From assembly GCA_048296855.1 (NCBI GenBank), contig CP182631.1: a stretch of 64,000 bases of DNA, one strand, 5' to 3'. Shown piece after piece: positions 25,690 to 46,864 of this stretch. The translations under genes were made by a program, and so were the position numbers. Positions within the stretch are counted from its first letter, which is position 1. Every line of letters begins with the position of its first letter. Below the pieces are notes generated by a model that was not told the DNA's origin, did no database searches, and saw only the letters and a list, made by a program, of their open reading frames with translations. Source of the DNA: Colwellia sp. RE-S-Sl-9 (lineage in GTDB: Bacteria; Pseudomonadota; Gammaproteobacteria; Enterobacterales; Alteromonadaceae).

Positions 25690-25735
25690 GAAAAAGGTAA
25701 TAACATTCTCTGCTATTACCTTTTCATAATTAACC
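25690..25735. repeat. hairpin-terminator repeat element, family member C (AAGGTAATA-N11-TATTACCTT ... ATAATTAACC)
   Basis: Perfect 9-bp stem. Same GGTAATAAC core and ATTAACC tail as the element at 14845. Lies between convergent genes. Confidence 0.55.
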
Positions 25736-25751
25736 TATAGCCATAAAGGTT

Positions 25752-28700
25752 TTAATCAAAAATGGCTCCTCCTGTATTATGACTCTCTCTACTTGTTGCC
25801 AACTCTTTAGTAACTTTTTGAACCGTCATAAAATTAAGAGTTTTTAATGTCTCTATTATTTCTAAATCAACATTTTTATTGCTGTTAAGTACAGATAATA
25901 ACGGCGTTATAAACGATTCCATATGCTGCGTAAATAAAGACAAGGTTTGTGTTAATTCAGCGTTATCTGGCTTTTCAACATTTACTTGTAACTTTAAACT
26001 AGACAGTGTTTCGTTCAATGTGTCTAAACTACCAGACTGAGACTGTTGCAGTACTTGGCTAATTTGATTCAATCCCTTTTGCAATAATGATATTTGGCTC
26101 GCAATAGCAGCCATTGGATTGTCGTTATTACCTAAGTTTTGATGACGAACAAAATCATCTTTTATGATTTTCCAGCGCTCTGCTTGCTCACTAGTTTGGT
26201 TATTACGAAGTTCAGCTAATTTAAGTAGATTTTCTTCAGCACCTATTGTTAATGTTTGAGCTTCACCTCGGTAATGATCTGCAATCAGTTGTTCAACTTC
26301 TTCGTCAGTCATCACAGGTACAATTTTTTCTACCATTTTATTCATGTTTCGGTAGCTACCTTGTAACTTAAAGGGTGGCTCGGTTCTGTATTTGTCGTCT
26401 TGGGCAGCAGATGCAATATATTGTTCATTCGCTTTTAAAACGGTTTCTTGAACCTTGCGAATACGCTTAATAACCGCAACAATTTCATTCACTTCGGCTT
26501 GTGAATAACTATGTTTAAGATCCGTTGCAGCAACCGGTTCTCCATCTGCCATTTTAACTAAATTATACAAGTCATCCATATCGCGTGTAGCAAGTGGCGC
26601 AATGTAAGAGTTACTGGTTAAGCTATTTTCAATAAAACTTAAAGAAAACTCATGTTCACGACCACTTAGCGTATCACCCAAATTATAAATATCAGCACGG
26701 TTAGCTAACATGTCTGGAATACTAAATGCTTCGCCTGACTCGGTATACGGATTACCCGCCATAACAACTGCAAACTTTTTACCACGCATGTCGTAGGTTT
26801 TACTTTCGCCATTCCACACACCATCTACCCGTCTTGAACCATCACAAAGAGAAATAAATTTTTGTAAAAACTCAGGATTAGTATGTTGAATATCATCAAG
26901 GTACAACATAACGTTGTTACCCATTTCAAAGGCTAAGTTGATTTTTTCTACTTCATTCTTTGCCGTTGAGTTATTTGCCTGCGCGGGATCAAGCGATAAT
27001 TGGTCGTGTCCAATAGACGGACAGTTAATTTTAACAAAGGTCATACCCAGCTTACTGGCTACGTATTCGATTAATGTTGTTTTACCGTAACCCGGAGGAG
27101 AAATAAGTAATAATAACCCCATTAAATCTGAACGTTTGTTATTACCTGCAGCACCAATTTGTTTAGCTAAGTTAGTACCTATTATTGGAAAATACACATC
27201 GTTAATCAGTTTATTTCGTACAAAAGAAGATAACGCTCTAGGTTTGAACTCTTCAAGTTGTAGTCGTTTACGCTGTTTTTCTAATACCTGTTGTTTGGTT
27301 TGATGAAACTGCTTAAATGCAGGTACATGTTCATACGTAAATTTACGTAACTTTGTGATAAATTCTTGATAGTTAATTTTTAATTTTCGATCATTAATCT
27401 GTTTATGCTGACCCAATAAGCCTTCTACAATACAATAGGTTTTAGCCGCAGAAGTATAAAACTCACTGTGCTGCTCTAACGTCATCAACATAGAAGCTTC
27501 AATTAATACATCTAAATGAATGTCTAATTTTTGATGATGAGCAAAAGCTTGTAACCACGCTAAATGGAGTTGATATTTTTGTTCTAAAGTTGAACAGCCT
27601 GATAGCGCGCTTTCAATTTGCTGTTCTAAGCTCTTATGTTTAAGTTGTGATTTTAGTTGTTTAACTAGATCTACACTTTCTTCTTTTATAACAAACTTTT
27701 GTTCAGCTAAAGCAAGCTCTTGAATAAGATACGTTGCTGATAAGACCGTGTCGCCGTTTAACCAAGGTTGCTCTTTAATATAGGTAGTTAATACACTTGA
27801 CAATTCATCCGTTAGCTGTTGCCTAAGCTGATTATCGCCGAAGGTTTCTTCCATTAAGTGTAAGTTATGACAACGCTGTACTAAGTCTTTACGTTGGTTA
27901 TCTTCTAATTTTGTTGAAAAGAAAAACACAGCGAGTTTTCTCTCTAACGCGGGGTAAGCTAATAGGCCTATAGATTCTCGTAACGATAATAGCTGTGTTA
28001 AAATTAAAGCGGCATCGGCGTCATGTACACCTTTATCATAACCTTCTTGATAGCGTGGCTCTGCCGCTTTTCTAATAAACTCTACTAATTGATTATTTTT
28101 TACCGCGTCTTTTAAGTGATCAATTTGAGTTTTACCAGACAATTCAGCTTCAAATAATAAGCTAGCGGCTAAGTATTCACCTCGGTATACATCACCACAT
28201 TCAGAAATAAGTTCTTGCTGCCATAAATATTCAGTACCCGCAAATAGTTCAGCGTCTAGGTTTTCAAAATACTCACTGCCACTAATGTGTAATACCATTG
28301 CCTTGTCACGTGGCAATAAGGTTAGTTCTAGTTTTTGCTTATTAACCGAGAACTGATGTTCGCCTATTTTAACTAAGCTACCGTCGGCTGAATAAATATC
28401 GGTTTTATCTCTAAGAGCTCTTATGCCTTGTTCTTTAGCATTTTTTAGCTGAGCATCAATGTCATCAGCTCTAACATTGTCATCAAGTTCTCTTAATTGC
28501 TCTATCAGTTGTCTTAACTTAGACACCATAGGGTCGCCAGCAAAATAACTATTGAGCTTGTCTTGATCATTAAAACCTTGGCTACGACGAATAACACCTT
28601 CGATAATACGCTGTGCCGCTGTCATTAAATTAAGACAACGACGCTGCTGAGAATCCATAAGCTGTTGTTTATGTTGCTCGAAGTTATCGTAAATTTCGTC

Positions 28701-30944
28701 TCGTTTAGCGAGGATCTCAGTATAAAACTCCTCATAATCGCTAAATTGACTTTCTAAGTCTTCAAGCTGAATAAGTATTTGAGAGAGTTGTTGATCGCAA
28801 GATTGCGGTGTATCACTCGCATTTAAGCCACTGGTAACACTTTGGCTTAGTAGTTTAAATCTGGCACCAAATTCGGCTCTAGCCTCTTCACTGCCTACAC
28901 TTTTTGCGGCTAAATCTGCGTTCGCTTTAACACGATTAATTTGACTAAATACACCTGATATATCTTCGAGTATACGTGTGCGCTGCCTGCTGTCTTCAAT
29001 ATCTAAAGACAGCATGGTGCGATTAAGTAATTCTAAACCTTGAATAAGCTCTTCAATGGCTAAACGTATAGGTTTTAATGCGGTGATTGACTCACTATCT
29101 GTAATCGCTGCTTCTAATTCTGCGATGGTAGTTTGGTAAGGGGTAAGTGCATTATCTTGCTGTAAAAAATCAGCCGTTGCTTGGCTAAGTCCTTTAGTGA
29201 GTTCGTCTAAAGTAACTTCCATGGTGTTAATTTCATCTACGTCAACATAACGTAATTCTTTATGAGAAATTAACTCGCCTTTAAATTGTGCTAACTCAGA
29301 TAAATTATCAACAAATTGCTTAGCGTTATTAAAGCGATTTAATTGGAGATTTTTGGTTAACTCAGTAAGCTTATTTCGAGCTTCTGACATAACGGCATCA
29401 GAGCTTGCTTTAATGCTAACGACTTTTTCAAACTCATCTAATACGAGTTCTGAAGTCGTAACAACTTGTTTGATCAGATCATTTAGAGTCGATAAGCTTG
29501 TATCATTCAACCAATGATATTTATCAAAAAGCTGCTTAGATTCTTTAACTAAATCGTTAAAATGATGCTCGCTAGGCGCTTCAATAGAAATTAATTTAAC
29601 AACGCTATATAAATCAGACACGCCTCTAACAAGTTCAGGATTACCTATTTTGCCAAAAAAACTTGTGTCGGTAGGTTGGTTGCTCGCATATTCTTCGGTA
29701 CAAAATGGGGTTTGCCATATTTGCATAGCATGCACACGCGAAGGTTCAGATTCTGCACTAAAAACTACAGCCCTTCCATTATCGTACAAGCTTTGACCGT
29801 GACCATAAATAGGGTTTTGTAATGTTCTCGTGATCAGGTTATAGCCAAATAAAGCATACTGACCTGCATTAGGTTCATAAAATATATAAAGAAAATCTTC
29901 ACCGTTGGGTGATTTAACTACACGGTGCAGTTGAAGATCTTCAGCATTGTCTTCAAAACTCTTATGTTCTCCATTTTGCAGATAGTATCCACCAGGAAAA
30001 ATAATACCGTGATCTTCAGGTAATTGAATACACGCATGTGCGATTGCGTCTTGGCGTAATACAGTTTTGGTTTTGCAGTTAAAAATTAAATGTCGGGTTT
30101 GCTCTTCACGGTAGGGCTTTATTTTTAATAAAATAAGTTCGCCCACTTTAGCGTAGCGAATATCCGCATCGTCTAAAGATTGGTGTTCATCATCAACAGG
30201 CTCTGAATATATACCTTGCCCTGCTTCGGTATTATTTTCTACTTTAAGGGTAAGTGACCCGCCCATGGTTTCAACAAAAAGCATATCAAATAAATTAAAG
30301 TGCGGATGCTTACCTTGCTCTTGTTGTTCTCGTGATACTTTATGCCATTCAAAATCAAAATTTTCTGGCTGTTTTATATCTCTTTCACCACGGTTATCAA
30401 TGTAAGTGACTTTATAATCTGGGTCGATCCCCCAGCGAAAAACACGTATGTCATCAATACGCTCACCAATTTGAAATATTGCAAAAACTTTGCTGCCTTG
30501 ACGGTAAACATGAGATAAAAAGGTTTTTTTATAGTAGGTATATAGCTCATCAAAATCGCGAACAAATTCAGGATCATCAAGAAAGCTACCTTGTATTGGC
30601 AAGTCTACAATTTCAATCTCACCATTGTTATCTTGAAGTTGATGCAAACTAAATACATCAGAAATGGTGATATTACGTTGTAAACCTAAAAAAACGTTAT
30701 ACCCAAAAAGTAAGGTGTCTCCAATAGCCGCTATGTCTCTCGCAACACAATTATGCTCGGTTCTCACTCTTACACGAGCATCAACGTTCATATCAGTTGA
30801 GCCAAATGTTGAAATACGTTCATCATTTAACTGTTTTATTTGTGTATTAAGTTCACTACCTAAGGCGGATAGTCGGCGTTGTATTAGCTCGTATGAGCCA
30901 CCTTCTGCAACGGCTTGATTGGTGACACTTTCCTTATTTGTCAT
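25752..30944 (-). CDS. giant (1730-aa) protein with a C-terminal AAA+ ATPase module (AAA_5/MoxR-McrB-like); the N-terminal ~1200 aa have no recognisable domain
   Basis: Walker A 'LLLISPPGYGKTTLIEY', Walker B 'VMLYLDDIQH' and a sensor-like 'VVMAGNP' block. The frame is uninterrupted. It starts 65 bp downstream of the flotillin gene on the same strand. Confidence 0.75.
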   Translation of the reverse strand: MTNKESVTNQAVAEGGSYELIQRRLSALGSELNTQIKQLNDERISTFGSTDMNVDARVRVRTEHNCVARDIAAIGDTLLFGYNVFLGLQRNITISDVFSLHQLQDNNGEIEIVDLPIQGSFLDDPEFVRDFDELYTYYKKTFLSHVYRQGSKVFAIFQIGERIDDIRVFRWGIDPDYKVTYIDNRGERDIKQPENFDFEWHKVSREQQEQGKHPHFNLFDMLFVETMGGSLTLKVENNTEAGQGIYSEPVDDEHQSLDDADIRYAKVGELILLKIKPYREEQTRHLIFNCKTKTVLRQDAIAHACIQLPEDHGIIFPGGYYLQNGEHKSFEDNAEDLQLHRVVKSPNGEDFLYIFYEPNAGQYALFGYNLITRTLQNPIYGHGQSLYDNGRAVVFSAESEPSRVHAMQIWQTPFCTEEYASNQPTDTSFFGKIGNPELVRGVSDLYSVVKLISIEAPSEHHFNDLVKESKQLFDKYHWLNDTSLSTLNDLIKQVVTTSELVLDEFEKVVSIKASSDAVMSEARNKLTELTKNLQLNRFNNAKQFVDNLSELAQFKGELISHKELRYVDVDEINTMEVTLDELTKGLSQATADFLQQDNALTPYQTTIAELEAAITDSESITALKPIRLAIEELIQGLELLNRTMLSLDIEDSRQRTRILEDISGVFSQINRVKANADLAAKSVGSEEARAEFGARFKLLSQSVTSGLNASDTPQSCDQQLSQILIQLEDLESQFSDYEEFYTEILAKRDEIYDNFEQHKQQLMDSQQRRCLNLMTAAQRIIEGVIRRSQGFNDQDKLNSYFAGDPMVSKLRQLIEQLRELDDNVRADDIDAQLKNAKEQGIRALRDKTDIYSADGSLVKIGEHQFSVNKQKLELTLLPRDKAMVLHISGSEYFENLDAELFAGTEYLWQQELISECGDVYRGEYLAASLLFEAELSGKTQIDHLKDAVKNNQLVEFIRKAAEPRYQEGYDKGVHDADAALILTQLLSLRESIGLLAYPALERKLAVFFFSTKLEDNQRKDLVQRCHNLHLMEETFGDNQLRQQLTDELSSVLTTYIKEQPWLNGDTVLSATYLIQELALAEQKFVIKEESVDLVKQLKSQLKHKSLEQQIESALSGCSTLEQKYQLHLAWLQAFAHHQKLDIHLDVLIEASMLMTLEQHSEFYTSAAKTYCIVEGLLGQHKQINDRKLKINYQEFITKLRKFTYEHVPAFKQFHQTKQQVLEKQRKRLQLEEFKPRALSSFVRNKLINDVYFPIIGTNLAKQIGAAGNNKRSDLMGLLLLISPPGYGKTTLIEYVASKLGMTFVKINCPSIGHDQLSLDPAQANNSTAKNEVEKINLAFEMGNNVMLYLDDIQHTNPEFLQKFISLCDGSRRVDGVWNGESKTYDMRGKKFAVVMAGNPYTESGEAFSIPDMLANRADIYNLGDTLSGREHEFSLSFIENSLTSNSYIAPLATRDMDDLYNLVKMADGEPVAATDLKHSYSQAEVNEIVAVIKRIRKVQETVLKANEQYIASAAQDDKYRTEPPFKLQGSYRNMNKMVEKIVPVMTDEEVEQLIADHYRGEAQTLTIGAEENLLKLAELRNNQTSEQAERWKIIKDDFVRHQNLGNNDNPMAAIASQISLLQKGLNQISQVLQQSQSGSLDTLNETLSSLKLQVNVEKPDNAELTQTLSLFTQHMESFITPLLSVLNSNKNVDLEIIETLKTLNFMTVQKVTKELATSRESHNTGGAIFD

Positions 30945-31009
30945 TTAAGACTCCATGATGCTGTATGAAGCCTTTAATGGTAAAGGCTTCATCTATTTAC
31001 TGAAAAAAT

Positions 31010-32992
31010 TTACTTAACGTCTGAAGTATTTTGGCTACCTAAATTTAATAGCGCCGCCAAAGCACCTTTTTGTGTGTCATCAGCATTATTTAATGTTGAT
31101 AACAGTTTAGACATATTGAAATTTTTCATGGTTTCACTTGTTTGTGCAGCACCTGATAACACACCACTCAAATCGTCCATAATATTACGATCACCATTTA
31201 AATGATCTTTAAGTAAGGTTTTTACTGTATCGCTTTCATTGACTAAACCATCGATAGATTTACCAACAGTAATAGACTTCATAAATTGATGTAGGAACTC
31301 ACCGTCTCCTCCCATAATATTTATGTTAGCTTCGCTTAATGCTGTCGCTAAAACGCCTGCTTGTTTCTCAGCTAAATCTACGCTGTTGTCTAGTCTAGCT
31401 AAGGTAAGTTCTCGCTCTTGATTTAAGCGTAAACCAAAAGTTTCAAACTCACGTGCTTGTTCAGACATTGCGTTAAGCACTTCTTGCTTCTCACGTAAGC
31501 CAGCTGCTTCAGCAAATGCTTTTTCTTGAATACCTTTCGCCTCGGCGGTTAGTTTTAACTCAAGCGCTTTAGCTTCAGCTTCACCTTGTCTTTCATGTGC
31601 ATCGGCTTGTGCTAGCGTTATTTGTGCTTCTGCTAACCCTTGTGATGCAGCTTCAGCTTGGTGCCCTTCTGCTAATATTTTTTTAGACTCAGACTGCTTG
31701 CTGGCAGTTTTTAATTCAGCTTCAGCAATAGTTTGCATTTTTCTTGCGGTATGCTCTGCGGCTTGCTCTTGTGCTTTAGCTGATTCAATATCTTTCACTA
31801 AAGCTTCTTCGGCTTCACCTTTCGCTTTAATCACTTTTTCATCTTTCTGGCGATTAGCTTCAGACACTACACGTAAATCTTTAATACGCTCTTCTTCTTC
31901 TGCAACGCTTTTATCTACCATAATTCGTTCTCTTTGAACTTCGGCGATGTTTTTGCGCTCAACCTCTAACGCTTTTTCTTTATCAATGCGTAGCGTTTCC
32001 ACTTCTTTTTCACGGTCAATTGACTCAATTTGACGTGCTCGTGTTACTTTTTCTTCTTCGATTGCAACGGCTCTGAAGCGATTTTGTTCTGCAATATCAG
32101 CCTCACGTTGTTTATTTTCTTCGGCAACGGCAATTATTTGTTCAGTGCCGATTCTTGCTTGTTCAGACTTACAACGCTCTTCTTCAACAATTTTTGCAGT
32201 TTCGGCTTCTTCGCGCGCTTTTACTGAAGCTATTTCTCTAGTTTGTTTAGCTTGCGAATCAGCTAATTGTCGTTCTAACTCTAAGCTTTTTTCTTCTGCT
32301 TCAATATTTTGACGTTTAATACGAATTTCTTCTTGGCGTTTTAAGTCATTCGTTTGTACACTTTGTTGAGCCGTAAGCTCAGTTATACGTCGAATACCTT
32401 CTGAATCCATTATATTATTAGGGTCTAAATCACTAATTGATGTTTGCTCTAAAAAGTCGATTGCAACATCTTCAAGTACGTAACCAGATAAGTCTTGACC
32501 GATCACTTCTTTAATCTTGTCTCTAAACCTATCGCGCTGGGTAAATAGTTCGGTAAAGTTAAGTTGTTTACCTACGGTTTTAAGGGCTTCTGAAAACTTA
32601 GCTTCGAATAATTCTTGTAATGTTTCAGGGTAAGATGAACGTTCACAACCTACCTGTTTCGCAACTCGTAAAATGTCTTCTTTGGTTTCGTTTACTCGAA
32701 TATAAAACGTAATAATAATATCGGCGCGAATGTTGTCTTGACAGATCAAACCTGAGCGCCCTTTACGTTCAAGCATCATACGCTTGGTTGAAATATCCAT
32801 AATTTCTTTTTTATGAATAATAGGAATAACCAAGCCGCCTGTGGTGCTTATTTCAGGCTCTGCTCGCAATTTGTTAATAATTAACGCCTGCCCTTGTTCT
32901 ACTTTGTTATAAAACTTTGCGACCATGATTAACAATGAAAAGACGAAAAGAGCGCCAATTCCGATAGCTAAATAAAGTGGTTCCATTACCAT
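31010..32992 (-). CDS. yqiK: flotillin-like SPFH/band-7 protein (YqiK family) with a long E/A/K-rich coiled coil
   Basis: 660 aa with an N-terminal TM helix, an SPFH domain and an extended coiled coil (AEAEAKA.. repeats). Confidence 0.8.
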   Translation of the reverse strand: MVMEPLYLAIGIGALFVFSLLIMVAKFYNKVEQGQALIINKLRAEPEISTTGGLVIPIIHKKEIMDISTKRMMLERKGRSGLICQDNIRADIIITFYIRVNETKEDILRVAKQVGCERSSYPETLQELFEAKFSEALKTVGKQLNFTELFTQRDRFRDKIKEVIGQDLSGYVLEDVAIDFLEQTSISDLDPNNIMDSEGIRRITELTAQQSVQTNDLKRQEEIRIKRQNIEAEEKSLELERQLADSQAKQTREIASVKAREEAETAKIVEEERCKSEQARIGTEQIIAVAEENKQREADIAEQNRFRAVAIEEEKVTRARQIESIDREKEVETLRIDKEKALEVERKNIAEVQRERIMVDKSVAEEEERIKDLRVVSEANRQKDEKVIKAKGEAEEALVKDIESAKAQEQAAEHTARKMQTIAEAELKTASKQSESKKILAEGHQAEAASQGLAEAQITLAQADAHERQGEAEAKALELKLTAEAKGIQEKAFAEAAGLREKQEVLNAMSEQAREFETFGLRLNQERELTLARLDNSVDLAEKQAGVLATALSEANINIMGGDGEFLHQFMKSITVGKSIDGLVNESDTVKTLLKDHLNGDRNIMDDLSGVLSGAAQTSETMKNFNMSKLLSTLNNADDTQKGALAALLNLGSQNTSDVK

Positions 32993-33067
32993 GTGTTTTT
33001 CCTCTTATTTAAAACATAGCCACACTATTGGCGGCCAAATAGATTGTAATTTTGTAAAATGAATAAG

Positions 33068-33700
33068 TTAGTGAGAGTAAGGTGCAACAATATAAGTGTG
33101 GCTGTCTTTTAGGTACTCAATTACGAGTACTTCATCCCCCTTTTTTAGCGTGTGCTGCGGATCACAGCGTACATCAAAGAGTATTTCGGCCCCCTCGTTA
33201 AATAAACGTGCTTGGCCAAAGCTGTCGCTTACGGTACTTGTAGCTATAATGGCATTTTTACCAACTAGATGATGACTTGTCGTAGTTTCAACGCTTGTAA
33301 ACATGCCCTTTATAGGACGAAGAATGACCGCAGCAATGGGAAGTGATATTGCAAAAACAATAACATCAGTTATAGCCCCCATCACGTAATATAACCAACC
33401 GTCAGGTAACCAAGTAAGTAGGTATAATTGAAGATAAAAACTGATCAACCAACAAATAAGAACAATAATGCTGATCACAAGTGTAAAAGGCACGCCAGTT
33501 AAACCAAAAGTAAGCATTAAGCCGGTGAGTCCACCAATAGAAATTTCAGGATCCAGATCTATATCAAGTTCAGCATCACCTGAAAAGCCTAAATCGACAA
33601 GTCCCAACATACCTACAAGCCAATACACGACCACAACACCTAGTAGGGTTGAATATATAACAGTGGGGAATTGTGAAGCGACTTGAAGCAGTTGTTCCAT
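33068..33700 (-). CDS. yqiJ: NfeD-like inner-membrane protein (YqiJ family)
   Basis: 210 aa with several TM helices and a C-terminal OB-fold-like soluble segment. It lies immediately upstream of the flotillin gene, as in the E. coli yqiJK operon. Confidence 0.65.
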   Translation of the reverse strand: MEQLLQVASQFPTVIYSTLLGVVVVYWLVGMLGLVDLGFSGDAELDIDLDPEISIGGLTGLMLTFGLTGVPFTLVISIIVLICWLISFYLQLYLLTWLPDGWLYYVMGAITDVIVFAISLPIAAVILRPIKGMFTSVETTTSHHLVGKNAIIATSTVSDSFGQARLFNEGAEILFDVRCDPQHTLKKGDEVLVIEYLKDSHTYIVAPYSH

Positions 33701-33772
33701 ATTTCATCCTTAAAATAAATAACATAACGCTTATATGTTTTGTTATTTTGAAATTTGATTTTGTGTAGATTA

Positions 33773-33811
33773 ATCATACCCATTTGACATAATATGTCAA
33801 ATGGGTATGAT
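33773..33811. promoter_or_regulatory. perfect 39-bp palindrome encoding two interleaved mirror-image sigma70 promoters (TTGACA-N16-TATGAT on each strand)
   Basis: Plus strand: -35 TTGACA at 33784-33789 and -10 TATGAT at 33806-33811. Minus strand: -35 at 33800-33795 and -10 at 33778-33773. The only non-palindromic position is the centre base, 33792. Confidence 0.6.
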
Positions 33812-33980
33812 GACTAACATCTTTTATTGGGATAAATTATCATATAGCTTAGTTAAAATCATTTAATAAAATATTCATAGGTAAATTATTTGATTCATTT
33901 ATCTAGTGGCATGTATTAACCAATAATTATATGATTAGTCTAAACATTTCAACATAAAATAACGTTAATAAGGATTTTAA

Positions 33981-34406
33981 ATGAGAGGCGCAGGTGGTAC
34001 TTCAGGTGGATTAGGACACTTTTTTATTGGCCTAATTATGATGTGTGGTGGCTTTTATATGTTATTAAATGCAATCACTGTAACGTCAAGTTTTGGCATG
34101 GGCATGCGGTTATATGGCTTTTCAGCGGGTGGTGGAAGCTTTAATGTAACGAGCGGTATGATCATGATCCCTTTTATTTTTGGTGTGGGTTTAATTTTTT
34201 ATAACAGTAAAAATATTTTAGGTTGGGTGTTATCTGTAGGCTCGATAACCGCGTTAATTTTTGGTGTTATCTCTTCTATTCGTTTTTCTTTTAGAACCAT
34301 GAGCTCATTTGATCTTATCGTTATATTGGTTTTAGCTGTCGGCGGCTTAGGTTTGTTTTTACGTTCTTTAAAAACATTAGATCAAAAATATCCTGATCAA
34401 AAATAA
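33981..34406 (+). CDS. small integral membrane protein, hypothetical
   Basis: 141 aa, Gly-rich N-terminus, 3-4 TM helices. Divergent from yqiJ. Confidence 0.5.
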   Translation: MRGAGGTSGGLGHFFIGLIMMCGGFYMLLNAITVTSSFGMGMRLYGFSAGGGSFNVTSGMIMIPFIFGVGLIFYNSKNILGWVLSVGSITALIFGVISSIRFSFRTMSSFDLIVILVLAVGGLGLFLRSLKTLDQKYPDQK

Positions 34407-37713: not shown

Positions 37714-38778
37714 ATGAAAAACTATGAATTAAAGCTTAATACAACTCGATGGGTGTTACTCGCAGTAACAATCGCCATGGGTTTATTTGCAATTTTAGAC
37801 CTATCTATTTTACCAACGCCCCTACACGATGAGTACATAACAAGCCGATTTTTGATTCAAGTTCCAACAATGATAGCCCTTCTGTTATCTTCATACTTTG
37901 ACCACTTTAAAAAGCACCGACATAAGCTTTATTTTGTTGTATTAACGACCCTTTCTCTATCGAATATTTGGTTTATAAAACAAGCATGGGTGATAGACAT
38001 GTTTAGTTTTCCTTATGATGGGCTACTCATTTATTCTGTGTTTGCCTTTTTTGTACTTCGGTTAGATTTTAAACTATCAATTTTATATGTACTGTTGTGC
38101 TTTTTAGCTTTGGCCAAACTATTAACTTTATATCCAATTTATGCTGACCTTAACTCAATTTACTTAGGTTTTTATTCTATTGTAAGTTTAATTTGTTTAG
38201 TGGGATTATATACCACTGAAAACTCTTTCAAGCGGGCTGAAGAACTAACAAATAAGCTTGAAGAGCAAAGTCAAACAGACCAACTATCAGGCTTACTTAA
38301 TCGAAGAGCTTATGAAAAAGAAGCATTAAAGTGTTTTACATCTGATGATAAGAATAAGCCAGTCTCTATATTTTTAATCGACATCGACGACTTTAAAAAA
38401 TTTAATGACAAGTTTGGACACCTCGAAGGTGATGTCATCATTAAAACGCAAGCAGATATATTAAAAGAAGTATTTAAAAGAGACCAGGATATTGTTGGTC
38501 GTTATGGCGGAGAAGAATTTATTGTTATAGCACCAAATACCCCTATTACTGAAGCTGAAAAAATGGCAGCTCAAGTAAATAATTTATGGCAAAAGTTTAA
38601 TCAGGAAAATGAAAAATATAGTGATCTTTCTTGTTCAATTGGCTTGGTTAACCTCAAAGATTTGTCAATTAATTGCGATTTAAAATCATTTATTTTACAA
38701 GCAGACAAAGCCCTTTATCTTGCAAAAAACAGTGGTAAAAATTGTTATAAATCGACTGATTATTCGATATCAGAATAA
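37714..38778 (+). CDS. membrane-anchored diguanylate cyclase (GGDEF)
   Basis: 354 aa with an N-terminal polytopic membrane domain (~6 TM helices) and a C-terminal GGDEF domain with active-site 'RYGGEEF'. Confidence 0.85.
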   Translation: MKNYELKLNTTRWVLLAVTIAMGLFAILDLSILPTPLHDEYITSRFLIQVPTMIALLLSSYFDHFKKHRHKLYFVVLTTLSLSNIWFIKQAWVIDMFSFPYDGLLIYSVFAFFVLRLDFKLSILYVLLCFLALAKLLTLYPIYADLNSIYLGFYSIVSLICLVGLYTTENSFKRAEELTNKLEEQSQTDQLSGLLNRRAYEKEALKCFTSDDKNKPVSIFLIDIDDFKKFNDKFGHLEGDVIIKTQADILKEVFKRDQDIVGRYGGEEFIVIAPNTPITEAEKMAAQVNNLWQKFNQENEKYSDLSCSIGLVNLKDLSINCDLKSFILQADKALYLAKNSGKNCYKSTDYSISE

Positions 38779-38814
38779 TGCTATATTTTTTCATTTCCTT
38801 ACACAACATCTATA

Positions 38815-38860
38815 CCGTTACCATTCAAGAGGCTATTTCAGAGCGCTTGAATGGTAACGG
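38815..38860 (+). terminator. strong hairpin after the GGDEF gene
   Basis: 15-bp perfect stem CCGTTACCATTCAAG / CTTGAATGGTAACGG with a 16-nt loop. Confidence 0.5.
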
Positions 38861-39244
38861 GTATATAACTATTATCGCATTTTAAGGCATAAATTGAGAC
38901 CATAAAATAAGACAATTACTCTTGATTTAGTTTTTATTCTAAAATTAGACTACAGTTAGTGATGGCTATAAAATTTAAATATTGTATAAAATAGCCAATA
39001 CCAGTGCAAAAACTGATATAAATAAAAAACGTTTAGTGATATTACTTTTTATTTGCTGAGTATAATTCGAAATTTAACAATCTTTGTTAGGATACAAAGT
39101 TATATAAAATGGATTTTTAAATAGTGCTCTTTTTAAATCCCTCTTATATTCCCCATAATTCTACAATATAAAACTTTTGTTTATATTTCTTATACTACCT
39201 TTTAAGTCATTGATAACTTAATGTAAGTTTATCAAAAACATGGA

Positions 39245-39736
39245 ATGGAATATAAAATGAATAAACAACCTGTCATTCACCCTATTAGTAAAAACTTTGA
39301 AAAACTAAACCAAGATATCTTTGAAACCATGTTCAAGTTATTTGAGCATATAGGTGTCTATTGGAAAAACATGGATAACTCGACCCCCTATCGATCAGAG
39401 CTCTATGTTTTTATGCAAAACCGAATAAATTTATACCCCATTTATCAAGAATATTATAAAACAGCTTACACCACGATTAATCAAATGATTTTAGAAGTAG
39501 GAGCTGAAAATTGTTACGAAATAATATTTACGGATCCTTACGCTAACCTCCCTCCTGTAGATTCAAATTTATCTATTGTTAGACAAAAAGTATCAAACGA
39601 ATTTATTGATTTTCAACTCTCTATTGGTGGATTTAAATCCTTTGGCGCTAAAAATTATCCTGGATATATTGGCGGAGCTTTTATCCCTGGAGAAGCAGTA
39701 CCTTACCGAACTATGGAGAATAACAATGAAATATGA
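39245..39736 (+). CDS. hypothetical small protein, first gene of a coupled three-gene operon
   Basis: 163 aa (or 159 aa from the second ATG at 39257, which has the better RBS). No signal peptide and no recognisable domain. Its stop overlaps the next gene's start. Confidence 0.55.
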   Translation: MEYKMNKQPVIHPISKNFEKLNQDIFETMFKLFEHIGVYWKNMDNSTPYRSELYVFMQNRINLYPIYQEYYKTAYTTINQMILEVGAENCYEIIFTDPYANLPPVDSNLSIVRQKVSNEFIDFQLSIGGFKSFGAKNYPGYIGGAFIPGEAVPYRTMENNNEI

Positions 39737-41339
39737 TCTAGTTATAATAGGCTCTGGGATCGCTGCTACAGCTCTTTCCCATAAGGTATTAGAAAAAAAT
39801 AAAAATGCATCTATTTTAATGTTAGAAGCTGGACAAAAAGTAAAAATGCAAGATGCAGCCCTTTGGCAAGATTACATTGTAAGCGGCAAACTACCCTACT
39901 CTAAATTTAATGATCAAGCATACCCAGAAAGAGATATACCAGGACAAAATCAAAATATTGGAGCAACCGTAGTTCCATTAGCGGGGTCAAGAGTAATGAC
40001 ATATGGAGGATCAACAATACATTGGGGTGGTTGGTCTTTCCGTTTAAAGCCTGAAGATTTTTTAATGAAAACCAATACCAACACAAGTATTGATTGGCCC
40101 ATTGATTACGAGACTCTAGAGCCTTATTACGGACAGGCTGAACACTATATTGGCGTTTCTGGAGATTCAAAGAACTTAAATCCACCACGCTCCACACCTT
40201 ATCCATTTCCTGCGTTTCCATTCACATTTGAAGACAGCAGCATAGCTTCAGCAATAAAATCTCTTAATATGGACTTTTCAAATGTACCTATTGCAAGACA
40301 CGGTATATTAAGTAGCTCAACGTTCAACGCACCTTGTAAAACAACCGGTACATGTAAATATTGTCCTTTTGGTGCTAGGTACGCTGCCACGAATTTTTTA
40401 AATCATATGAGTGATGAAAAAGATTACCCTAATTTAGAAATTCGAATTAACAGCATAGTTAATACCATTGATATGGATACTAAACAAAGAGCAAAAGGAG
40501 TGACTTATTTTGATAAAACAACTAAAAAAACTATGAGTGTATCCGCTAAAATAGTAATTGTGGCTGGTGGAGCTATCGAATCTCCTAAATTATTACAACG
40601 TTCAACATCTGACTTTTGGATAAATGGAATAGGTAATGATGAAGGAAATGTTGGTCGCTACTTTGTTACTCACCCTTACTTTATTTTTAGCGCCAATATC
40701 GCAGAAAATAAATCCCTTAAACAACCAGAAATGAACTTCCCTACACTTTGTAGTCGTCACTACGACAATGAATTTGAACAAAAAAAAGGAAAATTTATAT
40801 TAATACACCCACCTAGTTCACCTCAAATTGATATTGCCACTTTAATGAAAAACGGTAATACGCGAGAAGAAATTGAAGAAAGTATTAGAGGTTCAAACAC
40901 GGTTCAAATACACGGAATGGTGGAAATATTTAGCGAATATAAGAACAACATAACTAACTTACCAGGAGCCAAAAACCAAATAGGTCTACCTCAAACCATT
41001 GTAGATTATTCTCAATCGCCAGAATTTAACGATCGTATGACTTATATTCAATCCAAAGTTGAAGAGATTTTTAAAAAAATGGATGCAAAAATACAAGGAA
41101 AACCAACAATTTCATGGCGAGCGGATCATTCTGCATGTACTTGTAGAATGAGTGAAGACCCCAAAAAAGGTGTTACAGATAAAAACATGAAAATACATGG
41201 CGTTGATAATATATATGTTTGCTCAAATGCTGCATTTACCTCTACGGGTGCAATCAACCCCACATTAACATTAACCGCTTTATCTTTAAGGCTTGGCGAT
41301 CATATAAACACACAACTGGAGGCGTTAGATCATGAATGA
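39726..41339 (+). CDS. GMC-fold FAD-dependent oxidoreductase (choline dehydrogenase/glucose-methanol-choline family-like)
   Basis: 537 aa starting 'MKYDLVIIGSGIAAT' (Rossmann GxGxxG/A). The C-terminal GMC substrate-domain region contains His/Asn active-site-like residues. Start ATG at 39726 overlaps the upstream stop. Confidence 0.7.
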   Translation: MKYDLVIIGSGIAATALSHKVLEKNKNASILMLEAGQKVKMQDAALWQDYIVSGKLPYSKFNDQAYPERDIPGQNQNIGATVVPLAGSRVMTYGGSTIHWGGWSFRLKPEDFLMKTNTNTSIDWPIDYETLEPYYGQAEHYIGVSGDSKNLNPPRSTPYPFPAFPFTFEDSSIASAIKSLNMDFSNVPIARHGILSSSTFNAPCKTTGTCKYCPFGARYAATNFLNHMSDEKDYPNLEIRINSIVNTIDMDTKQRAKGVTYFDKTTKKTMSVSAKIVIVAGGAIESPKLLQRSTSDFWINGIGNDEGNVGRYFVTHPYFIFSANIAENKSLKQPEMNFPTLCSRHYDNEFEQKKGKFILIHPPSSPQIDIATLMKNGNTREEIEESIRGSNTVQIHGMVEIFSEYKNNITNLPGAKNQIGLPQTIVDYSQSPEFNDRMTYIQSKVEEIFKKMDAKIQGKPTISWRADHSACTCRMSEDPKKGVTDKNMKIHGVDNIYVCSNAAFTSTGAINPTLTLTALSLRLGDHINTQLEALDHE

Positions 41340-43667: not shown

Positions 43668-46144
43668 CGGCTATATGTACATAAGTTAACTAAGTAACGA
43701 CTGTCTTGACGATTAATCACACCATCATTATTTAAGTCATATACTTGATGTAAATTATGAGTGCCTCGTAATGCAGAGGTAAATGCTCTGACATCCATAG
43801 TATCAACATCTTGATCACCGTCTAAGTCACCTAAAACACCTATGTTCTTATCAAACGGTAAGTGATCAATCTCATCATTAACACCATCGTTATCATCATC
43901 TGAATCAATAAGGTCACCTAAATCATCATTATCAAAGTCGTTATCAATAGTTAATCTTGCAATGCCTTTATCGTATGTTTTGCCATCAGAAGCCGTGAAT
44001 TGTGCATATAAGAAATAAAAGTTTCCTTCAGGAAGCTCGCTGTTAGCTTTTGCTCCCGCCAACGGAATAGAGAGTGTTGAAGTCGCGGTTTGTTCTCCAA
44101 TAACGCTACCGTCAATTACCACTATATCGTTCACCAAACTCCAATCAGAACGAAGTTCGCGTAAAAATACTTTTAAACCGCCAACACCATCTGTAACAAG
44201 GTTACCAGTCCCCGCTTCAACATTAACTTTTACCTGCATAGGTTTAGTCGTTAAATGCGTTGTATTACGGTACTTTGCGTCATCATCAAATGAAAGAGAT
44301 GGTTCTACCGGTGTAGGTTCTGGCTCAACACTTACACAACCTTCACATAACAATTTAAAAGTACGTACGTAGTCATATGATGTAGTACGTTGCTCTTCTG
44401 TACCAGCTTTAACCATTCCACCATCTTCTGGCACTTCATTCCAGTCATAGGTTTCTATTGCCATTTGAATCCACATTTCCTGATCAAATGCAATGGGATG
44501 CACTATGCTGTAAACAAGCTGACCATCTAAGTAAAAGTCGATTTCATTCTGTGATTTCCAGTGAGCGCCATAGATATAATAACGTTCAGTTGTTTTCTTG
44601 CCAGCTGGCACCATTGTAGAATTTTGTCGTCTGTTTTCGTCATTACAACTTGTTTGACGATGAAACATATTTGAATGATAAATATGTTCCCAATCCATTG
44701 CCCAACTGTGAGTCAAACCTTCGTTAACTTTACCGATAGTTTCTTGGATATCAATCTCGAACATTGTCTTACAATCACTATTTTTACTCATTAACCAAAA
44801 CGTTGATGACATTTCTGTTTGGTTAGCTTTCATTTTGGCTTCGTAGTAATAAGATACACCGTCCTTAGGTGCGCTTGTTGGGAAAATAGAACGAATTATT
44901 GCGCCTTTATATTTAAAGTAGGCTTGTTTAAAGTTTCCATTTGCATCTTTATAAGGAGTATCTAACCATTGCGGACCACCTTCTAATTCATCAACGGTAA
45001 TTTTTAAGTTGCCGTCATTAACGCTAACCGTATCTGTAGTAAATAAACCTGGTGCTCTACCTGTCCATAACCAACCGTTTCCTACTGGCTCTACTTGCCA
45101 TTTATCAGCATTAATATTAGCACCTTCAAATTCGTCAGACATGTTATCGATTTTCAGCCAATTCATACCTGGAAAAGCCGGTGTTTGTACCCCTTGGAAA
45201 AACGGAACGTCAGTTATTGCACCAACACTAGCGTTTCTTGGCGCTGAATCTATTTCATCACTCGCACCATCATTATCGTCATCTGTATCAATTGAATCGA
45301 CAATACTGTCACCATCAAAATCACTATCGATATTAATATTTGCGATACTACTGTTATAAACATTTCCATTTGATGAACCAAATTCAGCAAATAAGAAATA
45401 GAAATTTCCGTCAGGAAGTTGATTGCTTGGTACTAAACCATTTAACGGAATCAGAATATTTGAAACGGCTGTTTGCTTACCAATTACACTATCATCGAAA
45501 ACTACAGTGTCTTTTACTAGCTGCCAATTAGATTTTAATTCGCGTAAATAAACTTTAAGACCACCTTTAGTATTATTTACAATATTGCCAGCACCCGCTT
45601 CAACATCAATAGTTACGTTAAGTGAACCTGTATTAGCATAAGTGCTAGTTTTTATATGATCACTTCCTTGAATAGTCAAAGAAGGAGCGACTTGTGCAGC
45701 TTCTATGTTTATACCGGCTACATTTACTGTGTAAGCATTTCCATCTGAAGAGAAAAACTTTACAAATAGGAAGTAAAAGTGCCCATCAGGAAGGTTTGCT
45801 GTTGCTGTTAATCCTTGTAAAGGGATCTCAACATTTGAAGTGCCACTCGTTTTGCCTATTGCTGATGCATCTGAAACAATTGTGTCTTTCACTACAGACC
45901 AATTTGAACGAAGTTCTCTTAAAAAATATTTAACTCCTCCTAATTGGTTCGTAACCGTGTTGTTATCACCAGCATGATAATTCACACTTACAGGTAAAAC
46001 GCTATTGGTTTGATATACGTTTTGCGTATATTGTGTTGCATTGTCAAAAGTTACCGAAGCTGCAGTTTGAGCATTACTCTCAAACGGGAGCCACGACAAA
46101 ACGACGGTCAAAAATATTCCGAACATTGTTATTGTTTTATTCAT
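43652..46144 (-). CDS. secreted multidomain GH16-family glycoside hydrolase with triplicated ~95-aa domain, TSP3-like Ca-binding repeats and dockerin-like C-terminus
   Basis: 830 aa with a signal peptide and the GH16 catalytic motif 'EIDIQE' (E-x-D-x-x-E). A homologous module (…GGLKV[YF]LRELKSNW…LPDGNFYFLFA…) occurs three times. There are two acidic D-x-D-x-D repeats and C-terminal 'DLDGDQDVD ... DLNNDGVINRQD' dockerin-type loops. Confidence 0.7.
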   Translation of the reverse strand: MNKTITMFGIFLTVVLSWLPFESNAQTAASVTFDNATQYTQNVYQTNSVLPVSVNYHAGDNNTVTNQLGGVKYFLRELRSNWSVVKDTIVSDASAIGKTSGTSNVEIPLQGLTATANLPDGHFYFLFVKFFSSDGNAYTVNVAGINIEAAQVAPSLTIQGSDHIKTSTYANTGSLNVTIDVEAGAGNIVNNTKGGLKVYLRELKSNWQLVKDTVVFDDSVIGKQTAVSNILIPLNGLVPSNQLPDGNFYFLFAEFGSSNGNVYNSSIANINIDSDFDGDSIVDSIDTDDDNDGASDEIDSAPRNASVGAITDVPFFQGVQTPAFPGMNWLKIDNMSDEFEGANINADKWQVEPVGNGWLWTGRAPGLFTTDTVSVNDGNLKITVDELEGGPQWLDTPYKDANGNFKQAYFKYKGAIIRSIFPTSAPKDGVSYYYEAKMKANQTEMSSTFWLMSKNSDCKTMFEIDIQETIGKVNEGLTHSWAMDWEHIYHSNMFHRQTSCNDENRRQNSTMVPAGKKTTERYYIYGAHWKSQNEIDFYLDGQLVYSIVHPIAFDQEMWIQMAIETYDWNEVPEDGGMVKAGTEEQRTTSYDYVRTFKLLCEGCVSVEPEPTPVEPSLSFDDDAKYRNTTHLTTKPMQVKVNVEAGTGNLVTDGVGGLKVFLRELRSDWSLVNDIVVIDGSVIGEQTATSTLSIPLAGAKANSELPEGNFYFLYAQFTASDGKTYDKGIARLTIDNDFDNDDLGDLIDSDDDNDGVNDEIDHLPFDKNIGVLGDLDGDQDVDTMDVRAFTSALRGTHNLHQVYDLNNDGVINRQDSRYLVNLCTYSRCGVQ

Positions 46145-46864
46145 TATATTTACCCTATTAATTGATCACTAAATAAACCTAAATTAAGGTATTTATTAGA
46201 AATCAAATATTGATTTTTTAATCTAGTGTTCTTGTTACTTAGTTTGTTATAAAAATTTGTAACATTAGCCACTGCATAGAAACGTAATAAAAATATAATA
46301 TTTTTCTTTAGTCATAACCATGGAACTCATTAATTGAAAGCTCCAAAATAGACCAAAGATAAAATCCCCGATTTATCAGCGTTACCTTCATAAATTCCTC
46401 GACTTTACTTCCCTATAGGAGTTAATAGTTAAGGATAATTACTCTTAAATACTATATTTTTAGGTTTCTTTAAATCAATTCATTTACTTACTTTTAACAT
46501 GTAAGCCAATGTTTTAACTTACGTTTACTAACAGTAAAGTTTGGTAATGGAAGGTAAGGACTCTTTGGCTTACGTAATTTAACGTTAAACACGTAGAAAC
46601 AGTTTTAAAATGAATAAATAAGTAACTCTTACTATAAAAAAACACTGAGCAAACATTCATATGTCAGTTTAGCTCGAATTAAAAGAACCCTTTAAGATTA
46701 ATAGGTTTCAAAGGTTCTGAATATTTTGTTAAATTTGTTGTGTTTTTTAACAGAATTGTTTTTAACAGATGCTAAAAGGCCAGTGATTTCTAAAAAAAAC
46801 ACTGCATAATTAAGTGAAGCCTATCTTATTGAATCTAAGCGACATCACGTTAAGAGATGATCAG

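Follow-up and report, generated by a model that had tools for sequence, protein, structure and literature searches.

The 64-kb stretch of Colwellia DNA that was analysed (hereafter the window) was found to contain a three-gene operon which is probably the core of a widespread membrane-stress module, one that would use ATP to remodel a flotillin assembly or its clients, such as PspA. The operon consists of three minus-strand ORFs at 33068-33700 (210 aa), 31010-32992 (660 aa) and 25752-30944 (1730 aa), encoding a YqiJ-like membrane protein, a flotillin and a giant AAA+ ATPase, respectively. The intergenic gaps are 75 bp (yqiJ-like/flotillin) and 65 bp (flotillin/giant), so that the ORFs match exactly the three co-directional genes with 65-75 bp gaps described in an earlier note on this DNA. 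A Shine-Dalgarno-like motif is present 5' of the start codon in all three genes, and the trio is flanked by a promoter-bearing palindrome on one side and a terminator hairpin on the other. The features of the locus are listed below.

33773..33816, no strand assigned: perfect palindrome, core TTGACATATTATGTCAA, with TTGACA-16-TATGAT (11/12 match) on both strands
33068..33700, minus strand: gene 1, YqiJ/DUF1449-type (short NfeD-like) inner-membrane protein of 210 aa (ORF, hydropathy, family HMM)
33017..33037, minus strand: small hairpin whose tail contains Ts, within the 75-bp yqiJ-like/flotillin gap
31010..32992, minus strand: gene 2, YqiK-type flotillin of 660 aa (BLASTP, family HMM, hydropathy, composition)
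30965..30992, no strand assigned: palindromic hairpin with a 12-bp stem, in the 65-bp flotillin/giant gap
25752..30944, minus strand: gene 3, giant DUF3686/DUF7902-family AAA+ ATPase, soluble, 1730 aa (Pfam, homologues)
29514..30854, minus strand: N-terminal beta-propeller of the giant protein (DUF3686, residues 31-477; Pfam PF12458, AlphaFold, Foldseek)
28401..29660, minus strand: long antiparallel helical-bundle/coiled-coil region (residues 429-848), including DUF7902
27465..28184, minus strand: helical domain (residues 921-1160), pLDDT about 90, with a small beta unit before it at residues 858-895 (model)
26145..27125, minus strand: AAA+ module (residues 1274-1600; Pfam AAA, AAA_5 and AAA_22, model me72cad53e16c, Foldseek, motif conservation)
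25755..26144, minus strand: poorly conserved, length-variable helical C-terminal tail (residues 1601-1730; conservation, pLDDT)
25691..25725, minus strand: hairpin with a 15-bp stem followed by a T-run, 27 nt past the stop codon of the giant gene

The strongest evidence that the three genes belong together comes from their neighbourhood in other genomes. The earlier note had asked for such a check, and the giant gene was found to co-occur with yqiJ-like and flotillin genes in all 76 related loci with upstream DNA (46-85% identity), always in the order yqiJ-like, flotillin, giant and on one strand. This arrangement is far beyond chance. The loci span Gammaproteobacteria, Myxococcota and Longimicrobium (Gemmatimonadota), and the same order was seen in six of seven relatives at 28-31% identity; a giant relative without a flotillin neighbour was found at one locus (L084), which is Bacteroidota-like by look. 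Such strict conservation of order across distant taxa, down to 28% identity, supports the trio as a functional unit. The pairwise-identity matrix of the giant protein correlates with those of the flotillin (0.94) and the YqiJ-like protein (0.90), pointing to co-inheritance of the three genes.

Co-transcription and co-regulation have been demonstrated in Pseudomonas aeruginosa PA14, where RT-PCR products were obtained across every junction from bacA to PA14_16200, bacABCDEF being co-transcribed, and where all five downstream proteins are up 6-13-fold in a bacA mutant (PMC10948618). By synteny, bacC, bacD and bacE appear to be the counterparts of the trio. The giant protein would correspond to BacE (PA14_16190 / PA3728), on the basis of gene numbering and of synteny in Pseudomonas paraeruginosa L032, whose giant protein shares 48% identity with that of Colwellia. 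The view of the trio as a single operonic unit, already put forward in the earlier note, is upheld by the conserved order and, through this syntenic assignment of bacE, by the RT-PCR product across the flotillin-ATPase junction (PMC10948618).

The product of gene 1 has three to four hydrophobic segments between residues 11 and 133 and a soluble, beta-rich (OB-like) C-terminal domain at about residues 140-210. The NfeD/YqiJ-like identity originally proposed for it was retained, as a family HMM made from the window sequence and 72 homologues matched Escherichia coli YqiJ over nearly the full length (29.6 bits, E 2e-11; HMM 18-197 against YqiJ residues 13-194), although pairwise BLASTP against YqiJ gave just E 0.1. 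Homologues carry NCBI names such as 'DUF1449 / YqiJ family / OB-fold-containing', and a search of Pfam (including NfeD and DUF1449) and NCBIfam with this protein returned no match at E<=10.

The flotillin is laid out as a membrane anchor (residues 1-29), an SPFH domain (about residues 30-190), a coiled coil (about residues 200-520) and a C-terminal tail. It was matched to E. coli YqiK by BLASTP (E 7e-41, 28% identity over 453 aa, SPFH domain included), with residues 2-440 aligning to YqiK residues 8-435, and its family HMM scored 188 bits against YqiK. Residues 200-520 consist of 62% E/A/K/Q/R, in agreement with the YqiK-type flotillin with a long E/A/K coiled coil recognised before. Pfam Band_7 (PF01145) did not match the Colwellia flotillin even at E=10; since the protein matches YqiK directly, this reflects divergence rather than exclusion from the family. 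Its homologues are named flotillin, SPFH or YqiK, a minority having a precomputed PF01145 match, and a PDB sequence search with the flotillin gave no match. Both the N-terminal hydrophobic anchor and a YqiJ-like (NfeD-type) gene 75 bp upstream are present.

The giant protein has the architecture of the DUF3686/DUF7902 family, namely PF12458, PF25472 and a C-terminal AAA+ module in 1600-2000 aa. DUF3686 (PF12458) occupies residues 31-477 (E 7e-192; 638 bits against a cut-off of 25; profile 1-448 of 448) and DUF7902 (PF25472) residues 598-678 (E 3e-21; 75.9 bits against a cut-off of 26). The earlier statement that the N-terminal ~1200 aa match nothing does not hold in view of these two domains and of a family that forms about 1285 clusters when grouped at 50% identity, with lengths from 1567 to 2042 aa and full-length collinear matches down to 28% identity. 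Solved-structure relatives were sought by sequence, with the single sequence and with the family profile, and nothing was found beyond local P-loop matches. In the AlphaFold model m5fe96f320d43 the propeller strands lie at residues 53-411, preceded by a conserved helix at residues 16-47; it is probably a propeller of six to seven blades, and its Foldseek matches included the propellers of DCAF1, CyRPA, LGI1 and the clathrin terminal domain. A structural search with the helical domain at residues 921-1160 identified no specific relative. Conservation drops past about residue 1600, where pLDDT is also low.

The C-terminal P-loop domain was detected by Pfam AAA (37.2 bits against 21.2), AAA_5 (31.8 against a cut-off of 22) and also AAA_22. 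All three motifs quoted in the earlier note are present, LISPPGYGKTT at residues 1280-1290, LYLDDIQH at 1347-1354 and VVMAGNP at 1393-1399, providing Walker A (GYGKTT), Walker B (LDDIQH) and, after a beta-hairpin, sensor 1 (N1398). A conserved arginine follows at R1416 (NRAD), and the lid region contributes two more (R1520 and R1532). Almost all aligned family members (about 160-167 of 172) keep Walker A, sensor 1 and the candidate arginines, which suggests that the ATPase is under selection. The model of the module (me72cad53e16c) has a core pLDDT of 70-83 and a mean of 58, a low overall confidence; the two hairpin strands (segment residues 223-228 and 231-236), which come just ahead of the sensor-1 strand (242-247), have a confidence of only 60-73. 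A hairpin between helix 3 and the sensor-1 strand, together with the AAA_5 profile and the Foldseek results, fits the AAA_5/MoxR-like side of AAA+ to which the domain had been assigned at the outset.

The top 50 PDB matches of this model in Foldseek comprised RuvB, NorQ/CbbQ, ClpA/ClpB/Skd3, ClpX, MCM and RFC. Neither Vps4, p97 nor FtsH was among them, and a classical-clade identity was rejected on this ground; sequence matches of the giant protein to Rix7, NVL and VCP-like ATPases were restricted to the P-loop. The model thus places the module in the beta-hairpin-bearing superclade, not in the classical one. A more precise clade call was dropped because the Foldseek scores were weak and similar for RuvB, NorQ/CbbQ, ClpB and MCM (E about 1e-4) and the C-terminal model has the low mean pLDDT given above.

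Expression of the operon is likely to start from the palindrome at 33773..33816, which contains a likely sigma-70 promoter (minus strand, 33800->33773, about 72 nt 5' of the ATG) and is likely also an operator for a putative dimeric regulator. The palindrome core is kept 5' of the yqiJ-like genes of Colwellia L001, L002 and L005 and of Psychrobium L004, while the outer arms, both present in L001 and L002, differ in sequence with their complementarity maintained. For the Colwellia operon, a promoter of the sigma-54 type such as has been proposed for P. aeruginosa bacA was rejected; no -24/-12 site was found upstream of it, and matches across the window were at chance expectation. The hairpin at 33017..33037 may be an attenuating or processing element, and the predicted one at 30965..30992 might lower ATPase expression compared with that of the flotillin. 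The hairpin at 25691..25725 is likely the operon terminator, common to the convergent DUF4442 gene. No structured RNAs or tRNAs were detected within the window.

It is proposed that the flotillin would be held in the inner membrane by its N-terminal hydrophobic segment, and that its SPFH domain and coiled coil would oligomerise into a cytoplasm-facing cage or patch. The multi-pass YqiJ-like partner would dock on the flotillin via its C-terminal OB-like domain, and the soluble giant ATPase would be recruited via its N-terminal beta-propeller and helical scaffold. Its AAA+ module would then use the energy of ATP to build, reshape or take apart the flotillin assembly or its clients, which in the long form of the module may include PspA polymers; in Colwellia, PspA would need to be encoded elsewhere. 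The topology is compatible with such a mechanism, as hydropathy indicates no transmembrane segment in the giant protein and a single N-terminal anchor in the flotillin. Gene identity, strict gene order and co-inheritance are read from the genomes; we infer all contacts between the proteins, their oligomeric state, the substrate and what physiologically triggers the system. The searched literature contained no direct interaction, localisation or ATPase data for any member of the giant family, and a search on DUF3686, PF12458, DUF7902, and flotillin with 'DNA repair ATPase' gave no relevant match.

The same functional reading was reached independently, by prediction, by Ravi et al. (2024 mSystems; bioRxiv 2020; PMC11237479), and the idea of membrane remodelling or quality control raised in the earlier note agrees with published predictions. 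The membrane-stress reading is also supported by the accessory genes of the trio elsewhere, since PspA, PLD and rhomboid genes join it at many of the loci (counts below). In P. aeruginosa, the PspA-like PA3731 is induced by osmotic shock (PMC2587700). Deletion of the P. aeruginosa flotillin (PaFlo3) has been reported to lower biofilm by only about 20%, with no stress phenotype (PMC13086221). According to a 2025 review, bacteria seem to lack a Vps4-like ATPase (PMC7619361). As the giant family is very widespread and nearly always follows a flotillin gene, it is an obvious candidate for such a role in the turnover of flotillin assemblies and PspA polymers. A more specific proposal, offered tentatively, is that the BacE-like giant may be a dedicated ATP-driven remodeller of flotillin (SPFH) cages and/or PspA (ESCRT-III) polymers, a non-homologous counterpart of Vps4 with a coat-like N-terminal half of propeller and helical repeats.

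The weight of PspA in this picture could be greater. The giant ATPase might chiefly remodel polymers of PspA (bacterial ESCRT-III) as a functional analogue of Vps4, with flotillin and the YqiJ-like protein as a mere platform and the Colwellia PspA encoded elsewhere. DUF2170 and PspA_IM30 genes lie directly upstream of the trio in 47 of the 76 loci, and PspA is nearby at the distant loci L082 and L088, in one distant case convergent and downstream. The apparent lack of a bacterial Vps4 would suit this reading too, as would the suggestion of Ravi et al. that abbreviated operons work with PspA encoded elsewhere (PMC11237479). However, the invariant partner is flotillin, and 29 of the 76 loci, Colwellia included, have no adjacent PspA. 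The AAA+ domain stands structurally with RuvB, MoxR, ClpB-D2 and MCM rather than with the classical Vps4 clade, and no MIT-like domain was found in the giant protein by Pfam or structure searches. PspA as the principal target is considered rather unlikely. Other accessory genes at the trio loci are PLD (25/76), rhomboid (29/76) and Zn-ribbon (20/76), and the longer form of the module, as in P. aeruginosa bacABCDEF, adds YjfI/DUF2170 and PspA, sometimes with a PLD hydrolase, rhomboid or Zn-ribbon gene. None of these accessories (PspA, DUF2170, PLD, rhomboid, Zn-ribbon) was found in the window, and tblastn of 47 PspA-like and 46 DUF2170-like neighbour proteins against it gave no match.

It is also conceivable, if improbable, that the giant protein is mainly a nucleotide-switched structural coat or scaffold resembling eukaryotic membrane-coat proteins, shaping flotillin microdomains and not acting as an unfoldase. 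The best whole-model Foldseek matches were coat proteins built of a propeller and an alpha-solenoid, namely IFT-A subunits, a yeast coat nucleoporin complex and clathrin heavy chain, and more than 1100 of its residues are non-ATPase scaffold. Walker B is DD and not the usual DE in 164 of 165 aligned family members, which fits slow hydrolysis, so that the ATPase may work as a slow switch and not as a processive motor.

The earlier suggestion of a defence device fared poorly. An anti-phage or abortive-infection system in which the McrB/MoxR-like ATPase would act as sensor or effector might be read from the patchy distribution, which in Pseudomonas looks like horizontal transfer (PMC13086221), from identities that are similar across phyla, and from HipA, RNA ligase or TelA genes adjoining some distant loci. 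Nevertheless, the only match in PADLOC-DB v2 was mad8 on the giant P-loop region (E 0.0063, 14 bits, insignificant), neither the flotillin nor the YqiJ-like protein having any, and PHROGs matches were generic (ATPase and clamp-loader). The core trio has no nuclease, protease or toxin domain, it is surrounded in Colwellia by metabolic and signalling genes without a defence island or a GC anomaly, and it is well conserved among Colwellia relatives, the flotillin being about 92% identical. A defence function was rejected, as PADLOC and PHROGs gave nothing meaningful and the locus is outside any defence island, and is regarded as very improbable.

Least credible of all is a role in DNA repair, taken from the Pfam and NCBI labels of the family ('ATPase involved in DNA repair', 'DNA repair ATPase') and from sub-threshold P-loop matches to RuvB; it was rejected because these reach no family cut-off (RuvB NCBIfam 20.5 bits against 282, in the P-loop region only), no SMC, RecN, SbcC, AAA_23, nuclease or DNA-binding domain was found in the giant protein, its invariant partners are membrane proteins, and the searched literature contained no link between DUF3686 and DNA repair. 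The label appears to be an old automatic annotation, of a kind that long coiled-coil proteins often receive, and is probably misleading. The preferred reading, an ATP-driven remodeller working with flotillin, makes the giant family relevant to the way in which bacteria dynamically build and dismantle their flotillin assemblies and PspA polymers. The Colwellia locus itself adds little conceptually, since the flotillin-ATPase association has already been published; as a minimal trio with no PspA, PLD or rhomboid gene and with a simple sigma-70-type promoter, it could suit reconstitution.

Among known systems, the MoxR family (NorQ, CbbQ, RavA; AAA_5) resembles the giant ATPase in the motif pattern AGNP...IPDMLANR, and NorQ and CbbQ were among its best Foldseek matches. 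The family differs in its canonical Walker B (hhhhDE, where the giant protein has DD), in lacking the N-terminal scaffold of about 1250 residues, and in its VWA partner, no VWA gene having been found in the window or among the conserved neighbours of related loci.

HflK/C-FtsH is an SPFH cage enclosing an AAA+ protease at the inner membrane, with HflK/C facing the periplasm and FtsH being a membrane-anchored, classical-clade AAA+ protein with a protease domain. The Colwellia system would share with it the concept of an AAA+ machine paired to an SPFH assembly at the inner membrane. Unlike FtsH, the giant protein is a soluble one without a protease domain, and it falls among the beta-hairpin-bearing AAA+ clades.

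In the E. coli yqiJK and Bacillus subtilis yuaF-floT pairs, as at the Colwellia locus, the gene for a YqiJ-type membrane protein precedes that for a YqiK-type flotillin. In contrast to the Colwellia trio there is no ATPase downstream of E. coli yqiK, and canonical yqiJK is indeed the two-gene unit that it had been taken for. The Colwellia flotillin is about 100 aa longer than that of the canonical pair and too divergent for Pfam Band_7.

The bac operon (PA3732-PA3727 / PA14_16140-16200) has the same order of BacC (PA3730), BacD/PaFlo3 (PA3729) and BacE (PA3728), and at the P. paraeruginosa locus the YqiJ-like protein (~213 aa), the flotillin (~688 aa) and the giant protein (~1746 aa) likewise follow one another as in Colwellia. 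The bac operon has in addition DUF2170 (BacA) and PspA (BacB) upstream and PLD (BacF) downstream, all three of which are absent from the Colwellia locus, and a sigma-54 site has been proposed for it, whereas the Colwellia palindrome is of sigma-70 type.

The closest description is that of the CesT/Tir-PspA and flotillin neighbourhood by Ravi et al. (PMC11237479), a purely computational one which gives no function for the ATPase and does not mention the rhomboid accessory in its main text. It brings together a band-7/flotillin protein, YqiJ/YuaF and an AAA+ ATPase, described as novel, whose architecture includes a coiled coil and a beta-propeller, a component list identical to that found here, and it includes an abbreviated operon without PspA in which flotillin, YqiJ/YuaF and the AAA+ ATPase stand alone (PMC11237479). 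The earlier view that this was not a described system is thereby overturned, since both the exact combination and its abbreviated form have been published. All components of the abbreviated operon are present in Colwellia, and as no CesT/Tir (DUF2170)-PspA dyad adjoins the trio, the locus corresponds to that published form.

The three-gene operon described in the earlier note was confirmed as observed. Its ORFs are co-directional on the minus strand, with gaps of 75 bp (YqiJ-like/flotillin) and 65 bp (flotillin/giant ATPase), and a Shine-Dalgarno-like motif was found 5' of each of the three start codons. The operon and its flanking elements are:

33981-34406, plus strand: 141-aa ORF with about four hydrophobic segments, divergent from the palindrome
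33773-33816, both strands: perfect palindrome upstream of the trio, core TTGACATATTATGTCAA, TTGACA-16-TATGAT on each strand
33068-33700, minus strand: YqiJ-like gene, 210 aa (ORF)
33017-33037: hairpin in the first gap, 7-bp stem
31010-32992, minus strand: flotillin gene, 660 aa (ORF)
30965-30992: hairpin in the second gap, 12-bp stem
25752-30944, minus strand: giant ATPase gene, 1730 aa (ORF)
25725-25691: hairpin with 15-bp stem and T-run, 27 nt past the giant-gene stop codon

The G+C content of the operon equals that of the remaining sequence (window average ~0.36); markedly lower values occur at 46001-48000 (0.29) and 38001-40000 (0.31). The predicted gap hairpins could tune the flotillin:ATPase expression ratio or act as RNA processing sites. 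The palindrome core TTGACATATTATGTCAA is predicted to form near-consensus sigma-70 promoters on both strands. It is kept 5' of the operon in Colwellia (fetched loci L001 at ~7136, L002 at ~7157, and L005) and Psychrobium (L004, 5' of the yqiJ-like gene) relatives, while the outer arms differ in sequence in L001 and L002 with complementarity kept (ACCCATTTGACATA in the window, ACGCCTTTGACATA in L002). The palindrome is probably an operator for a dimeric regulator, and this candidate conserved operator/promoter of the Colwellia/Psychrobium group is new from the present analysis. The 141-aa protein had no Pfam or PHROG match. In two Colwellia MAGs (L001, 5962-6387; L002, 5990-6409) its homologues are divergent and 5' of the operon, with a Zn-ribbon gene between; in a Paraglaciecola MAG (L059, 15109-15516) a homologue directly follows the giant gene, in the same orientation. 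The protein may be a lineage-specific accessory.

The giant protein had been thought unrecognisable outside its ATPase domain, which was wrong, as PF12458 (DUF3686, 'ATPase involved in DNA repair') was found on residues 31-477 (E 7e-192) and PF25472 (DUF7902) on residues 598-678. The Pfam families AAA, AAA_5 and AAA_22 matched residues 1276-1401, and hydropathy indicated no transmembrane segment. An identical 1730-aa protein is recorded for Colwellia sp. RE-S-Sl-9, and more than 5000 homologues were scored, mostly labelled 'DNA repair ATPase'. When 1.84 billion cluster representatives were searched exhaustively, 1285 clusters matched (412 at E<1e-30), the matches being full-length and collinear down to 28% identity. 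No solved structure of any family member was found by sequence or profile search, and no paper on the biochemistry or structure of the giant ATPase turned up in the literature. In the AlphaFold model, residues 1-1200 (mean pLDDT 77) comprise:

16-47: conserved helix
53-411: beta-propeller
429-848: long antiparallel helices, ~420 residues
858-895: small beta unit
921-1160: confident helical domain

Residues 1150-1730 were modelled poorly overall (mean pLDDT 58), with the AAA+ core at 70-83. In the model this core carries a beta-hairpin between helix 3 and the sensor-1 strand, and its best PDB matches were RuvB, NorQ/CbbQ (MoxR family), ClpA/ClpB/Skd3 and MCM; none of the classical-clade proteins Vps4, p97 and FtsH was among these best structural matches. 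Judged by the model, the AAA+ domain falls outside the classical clade, an assignment new from the present analysis. Motif conservation was counted in the aligned members (~160-167 of 172). Walker A (GxGKTT) is invariant, and the sensor-1 N-P, R1416 (in NRAD), R1520 and R1532 are near-invariant. Walker B reads hDDIQH in 164 of 165 members (residues 1350-1354, window ~26883-26897), with an aspartate in place of the usual catalytic glutamate (DD, not DE) and invariant Q1353 and H1354. This suggests that the family may have unusual hydrolysis chemistry or switch-like behaviour. The constancy of DD at this site is likewise new from the present analysis.

The 660-aa protein had no Pfam, NCBIfam, PADLOC or PDB sequence match, even at E=10. 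However, it aligned with Escherichia coli YqiK over 453 aa including the SPFH domain (E 7e-41, 28% identity), a family HMM scored 188 bits on YqiK, and its homologues bear the names flotillin, SPFH and YqiK. It has a single N-terminal hydrophobic anchor, with E/A/K/Q/R making up 62% of residues 200-520, and by sequence it is a divergent YqiK-type flotillin. In L035 (Saccharospirillaceae) two flotillin-like ORFs lie 5' of the giant gene (6990-7646, 218 aa; 7721-9790, ~690 aa), possibly as a result of duplication, fragmentation or a frameshift. In the 210-aa protein, three to four hydrophobic segments are followed by a soluble domain at the C-terminus. Its pairwise comparison with E. coli YqiJ was insignificant (E 0.1), but an HMM of 72 homologues plus the window sequence matched YqiJ nearly full length (29.6 bits, E 2e-11), and NCBI labels its homologues DUF1449, YqiJ family or OB-fold-containing.

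When one genome per species was scanned, 571 confirmed relatives emerged; we fetched the 80 best loci (46-85% identity), which span Colwellia, Pseudoalteromonas, Pseudomonas, Cellvibrio, Lysobacter, methanotrophs, Myxococcota and Longimicrobium. In each of the 76 loci with upstream DNA, ORF and phmmer analysis placed a flotillin-like gene directly 5' of the giant gene; 72 have a YqiJ-like gene 5' of the flotillin, and the other four are truncated by contig ends. Every one of these genes is on the same strand. The pair is also immediately 5' (HMM-verified) in six of seven representatives at 28-31% identity, although one of these six contigs stops short of the YqiJ-like gene. The linkage has an exception: the seventh (L084, GCA_031454105.1, 7001-11830; 28% identity) is solitary, with no flotillin or YqiJ-like neighbour; its genome appears Bacteroidota-like, as a TonB/CarboxypepD_reg-type receptor is nearby. 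Near-universal linkage of the trio, even at 28% identity, is a new result, and there is strong support for the proposed functional unit. Matrices of pairwise identity for the three proteins have correlations of 0.90-0.94; as the comparison covers the linked genes only, it shows co-inheritance and nothing beyond. As had been stated, the canonical yqiJK is a two-gene unit, with no such ATPase downstream in E. coli.

Accessory genes, their labels confirmed by Pfam, were found in the 76 loci as follows:

DUF2170 (YjfI) and PspA_IM30, upstream: 47/76
Rhomboid, after the giant ATPase: 29/76
PLD (HKD) hydrolase: 25/76
TFIIB-type Zn-ribbon protein (182 aa), variable positions: 20/76

None of these genes occurs within the window. 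The rhomboid-family membrane protease gene is short (PF01694, E 7e-18; L015-L074, e.g., L017 15278-15829) and lies 5' of the trio in the distant locus L085; the Zn-ribbon gene stands between flotillin and giant gene in L066 and L074. Rhomboid and Zn-ribbon accessories at many loci are new from the present analysis, the former not being mentioned in the main text of Ravi et al. (2024; PMC11237479). In two distant, unrelated loci TelA (toxic-anion resistance, PF05816) lies within a few kb 3' of the giant gene (L089 12502-13608; L090 14176-15303), and in L090 genes for HipA, RNA ligase and R2K also adjoin the trio.

Alongside the demonstrated linkage, domain identities and (in Pseudomonas) co-transcription, the best-supported reading is flotillin remodelling in four steps, whose interactions and substrate we infer, in part from what is known of SPFH cages and AAA+ remodellers. 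The flotillin would form a cytoplasm-facing oligomeric assembly at the inner membrane, partnered there by the YqiJ-like membrane protein; the giant ATPase, a soluble protein, would dock via its propeller and helical scaffold, and the AAA+ module would remodel the flotillin assembly or clients such as PspA. Of four rivals weighed, a PspA-specific Vps4 analogue is plausible, though PspA does not accompany the trio at every locus. The DD Walker B, together with weak coat-like fold matches, would suggest a nucleotide-switched coat or scaffold. For a DNA-repair ATPase the database label is the sole argument, and nothing supports the anti-phage defence device proposed earlier.

The system had also been taken as undescribed, which is incorrect. 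Ravi et al. (mSystems 2024; bioRxiv 2020; PMC11237479) reported operons of four components, namely CesT/Tir (DUF2170) and PspA, a band-7/flotillin protein, a novel AAA+ ATPase having both a coiled coil and a beta-propeller, and a 3TM YqiJ/YuaF protein, sometimes joined by a PLD hydrolase. The Colwellia trio has the arrangement of an abbreviated form, lacking PspA, already described there. By our inference their ATPase belongs to DUF3686, since the components they list correspond one for one to those of the fetched loci. In Pseudomonas aeruginosa PA14 the same six genes are bacABCDEF, with RT-PCR products across all the junctions (that of flotillin PA14_16180 with PA14_16190 among them), a proposed sigma-54 promoter, and a 6-13-fold increase of all five downstream proteins in a bacA mutant (PMC10948618). 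PA3729 (76 kDa) and PA3730 (23 kDa) agree in size with the flotillin and YqiJ-like proteins of L032 (P. paraeruginosa), and the PspA-like PA3731 is induced by osmotic shock (PMC2587700). Deletion of the flotillin only (PaFlo3) lowered biofilm by only ~20% (PMC13086221), and PA3728 is listed, as an 'ATPase', with recurrent mutations in isolates from cystic fibrosis (PMC8190622). The family would be more rewarding as an experimental target than the Colwellia locus is as a discovery, the latter being a minimal three-gene form of a system described computationally and partly studied in Pseudomonas.
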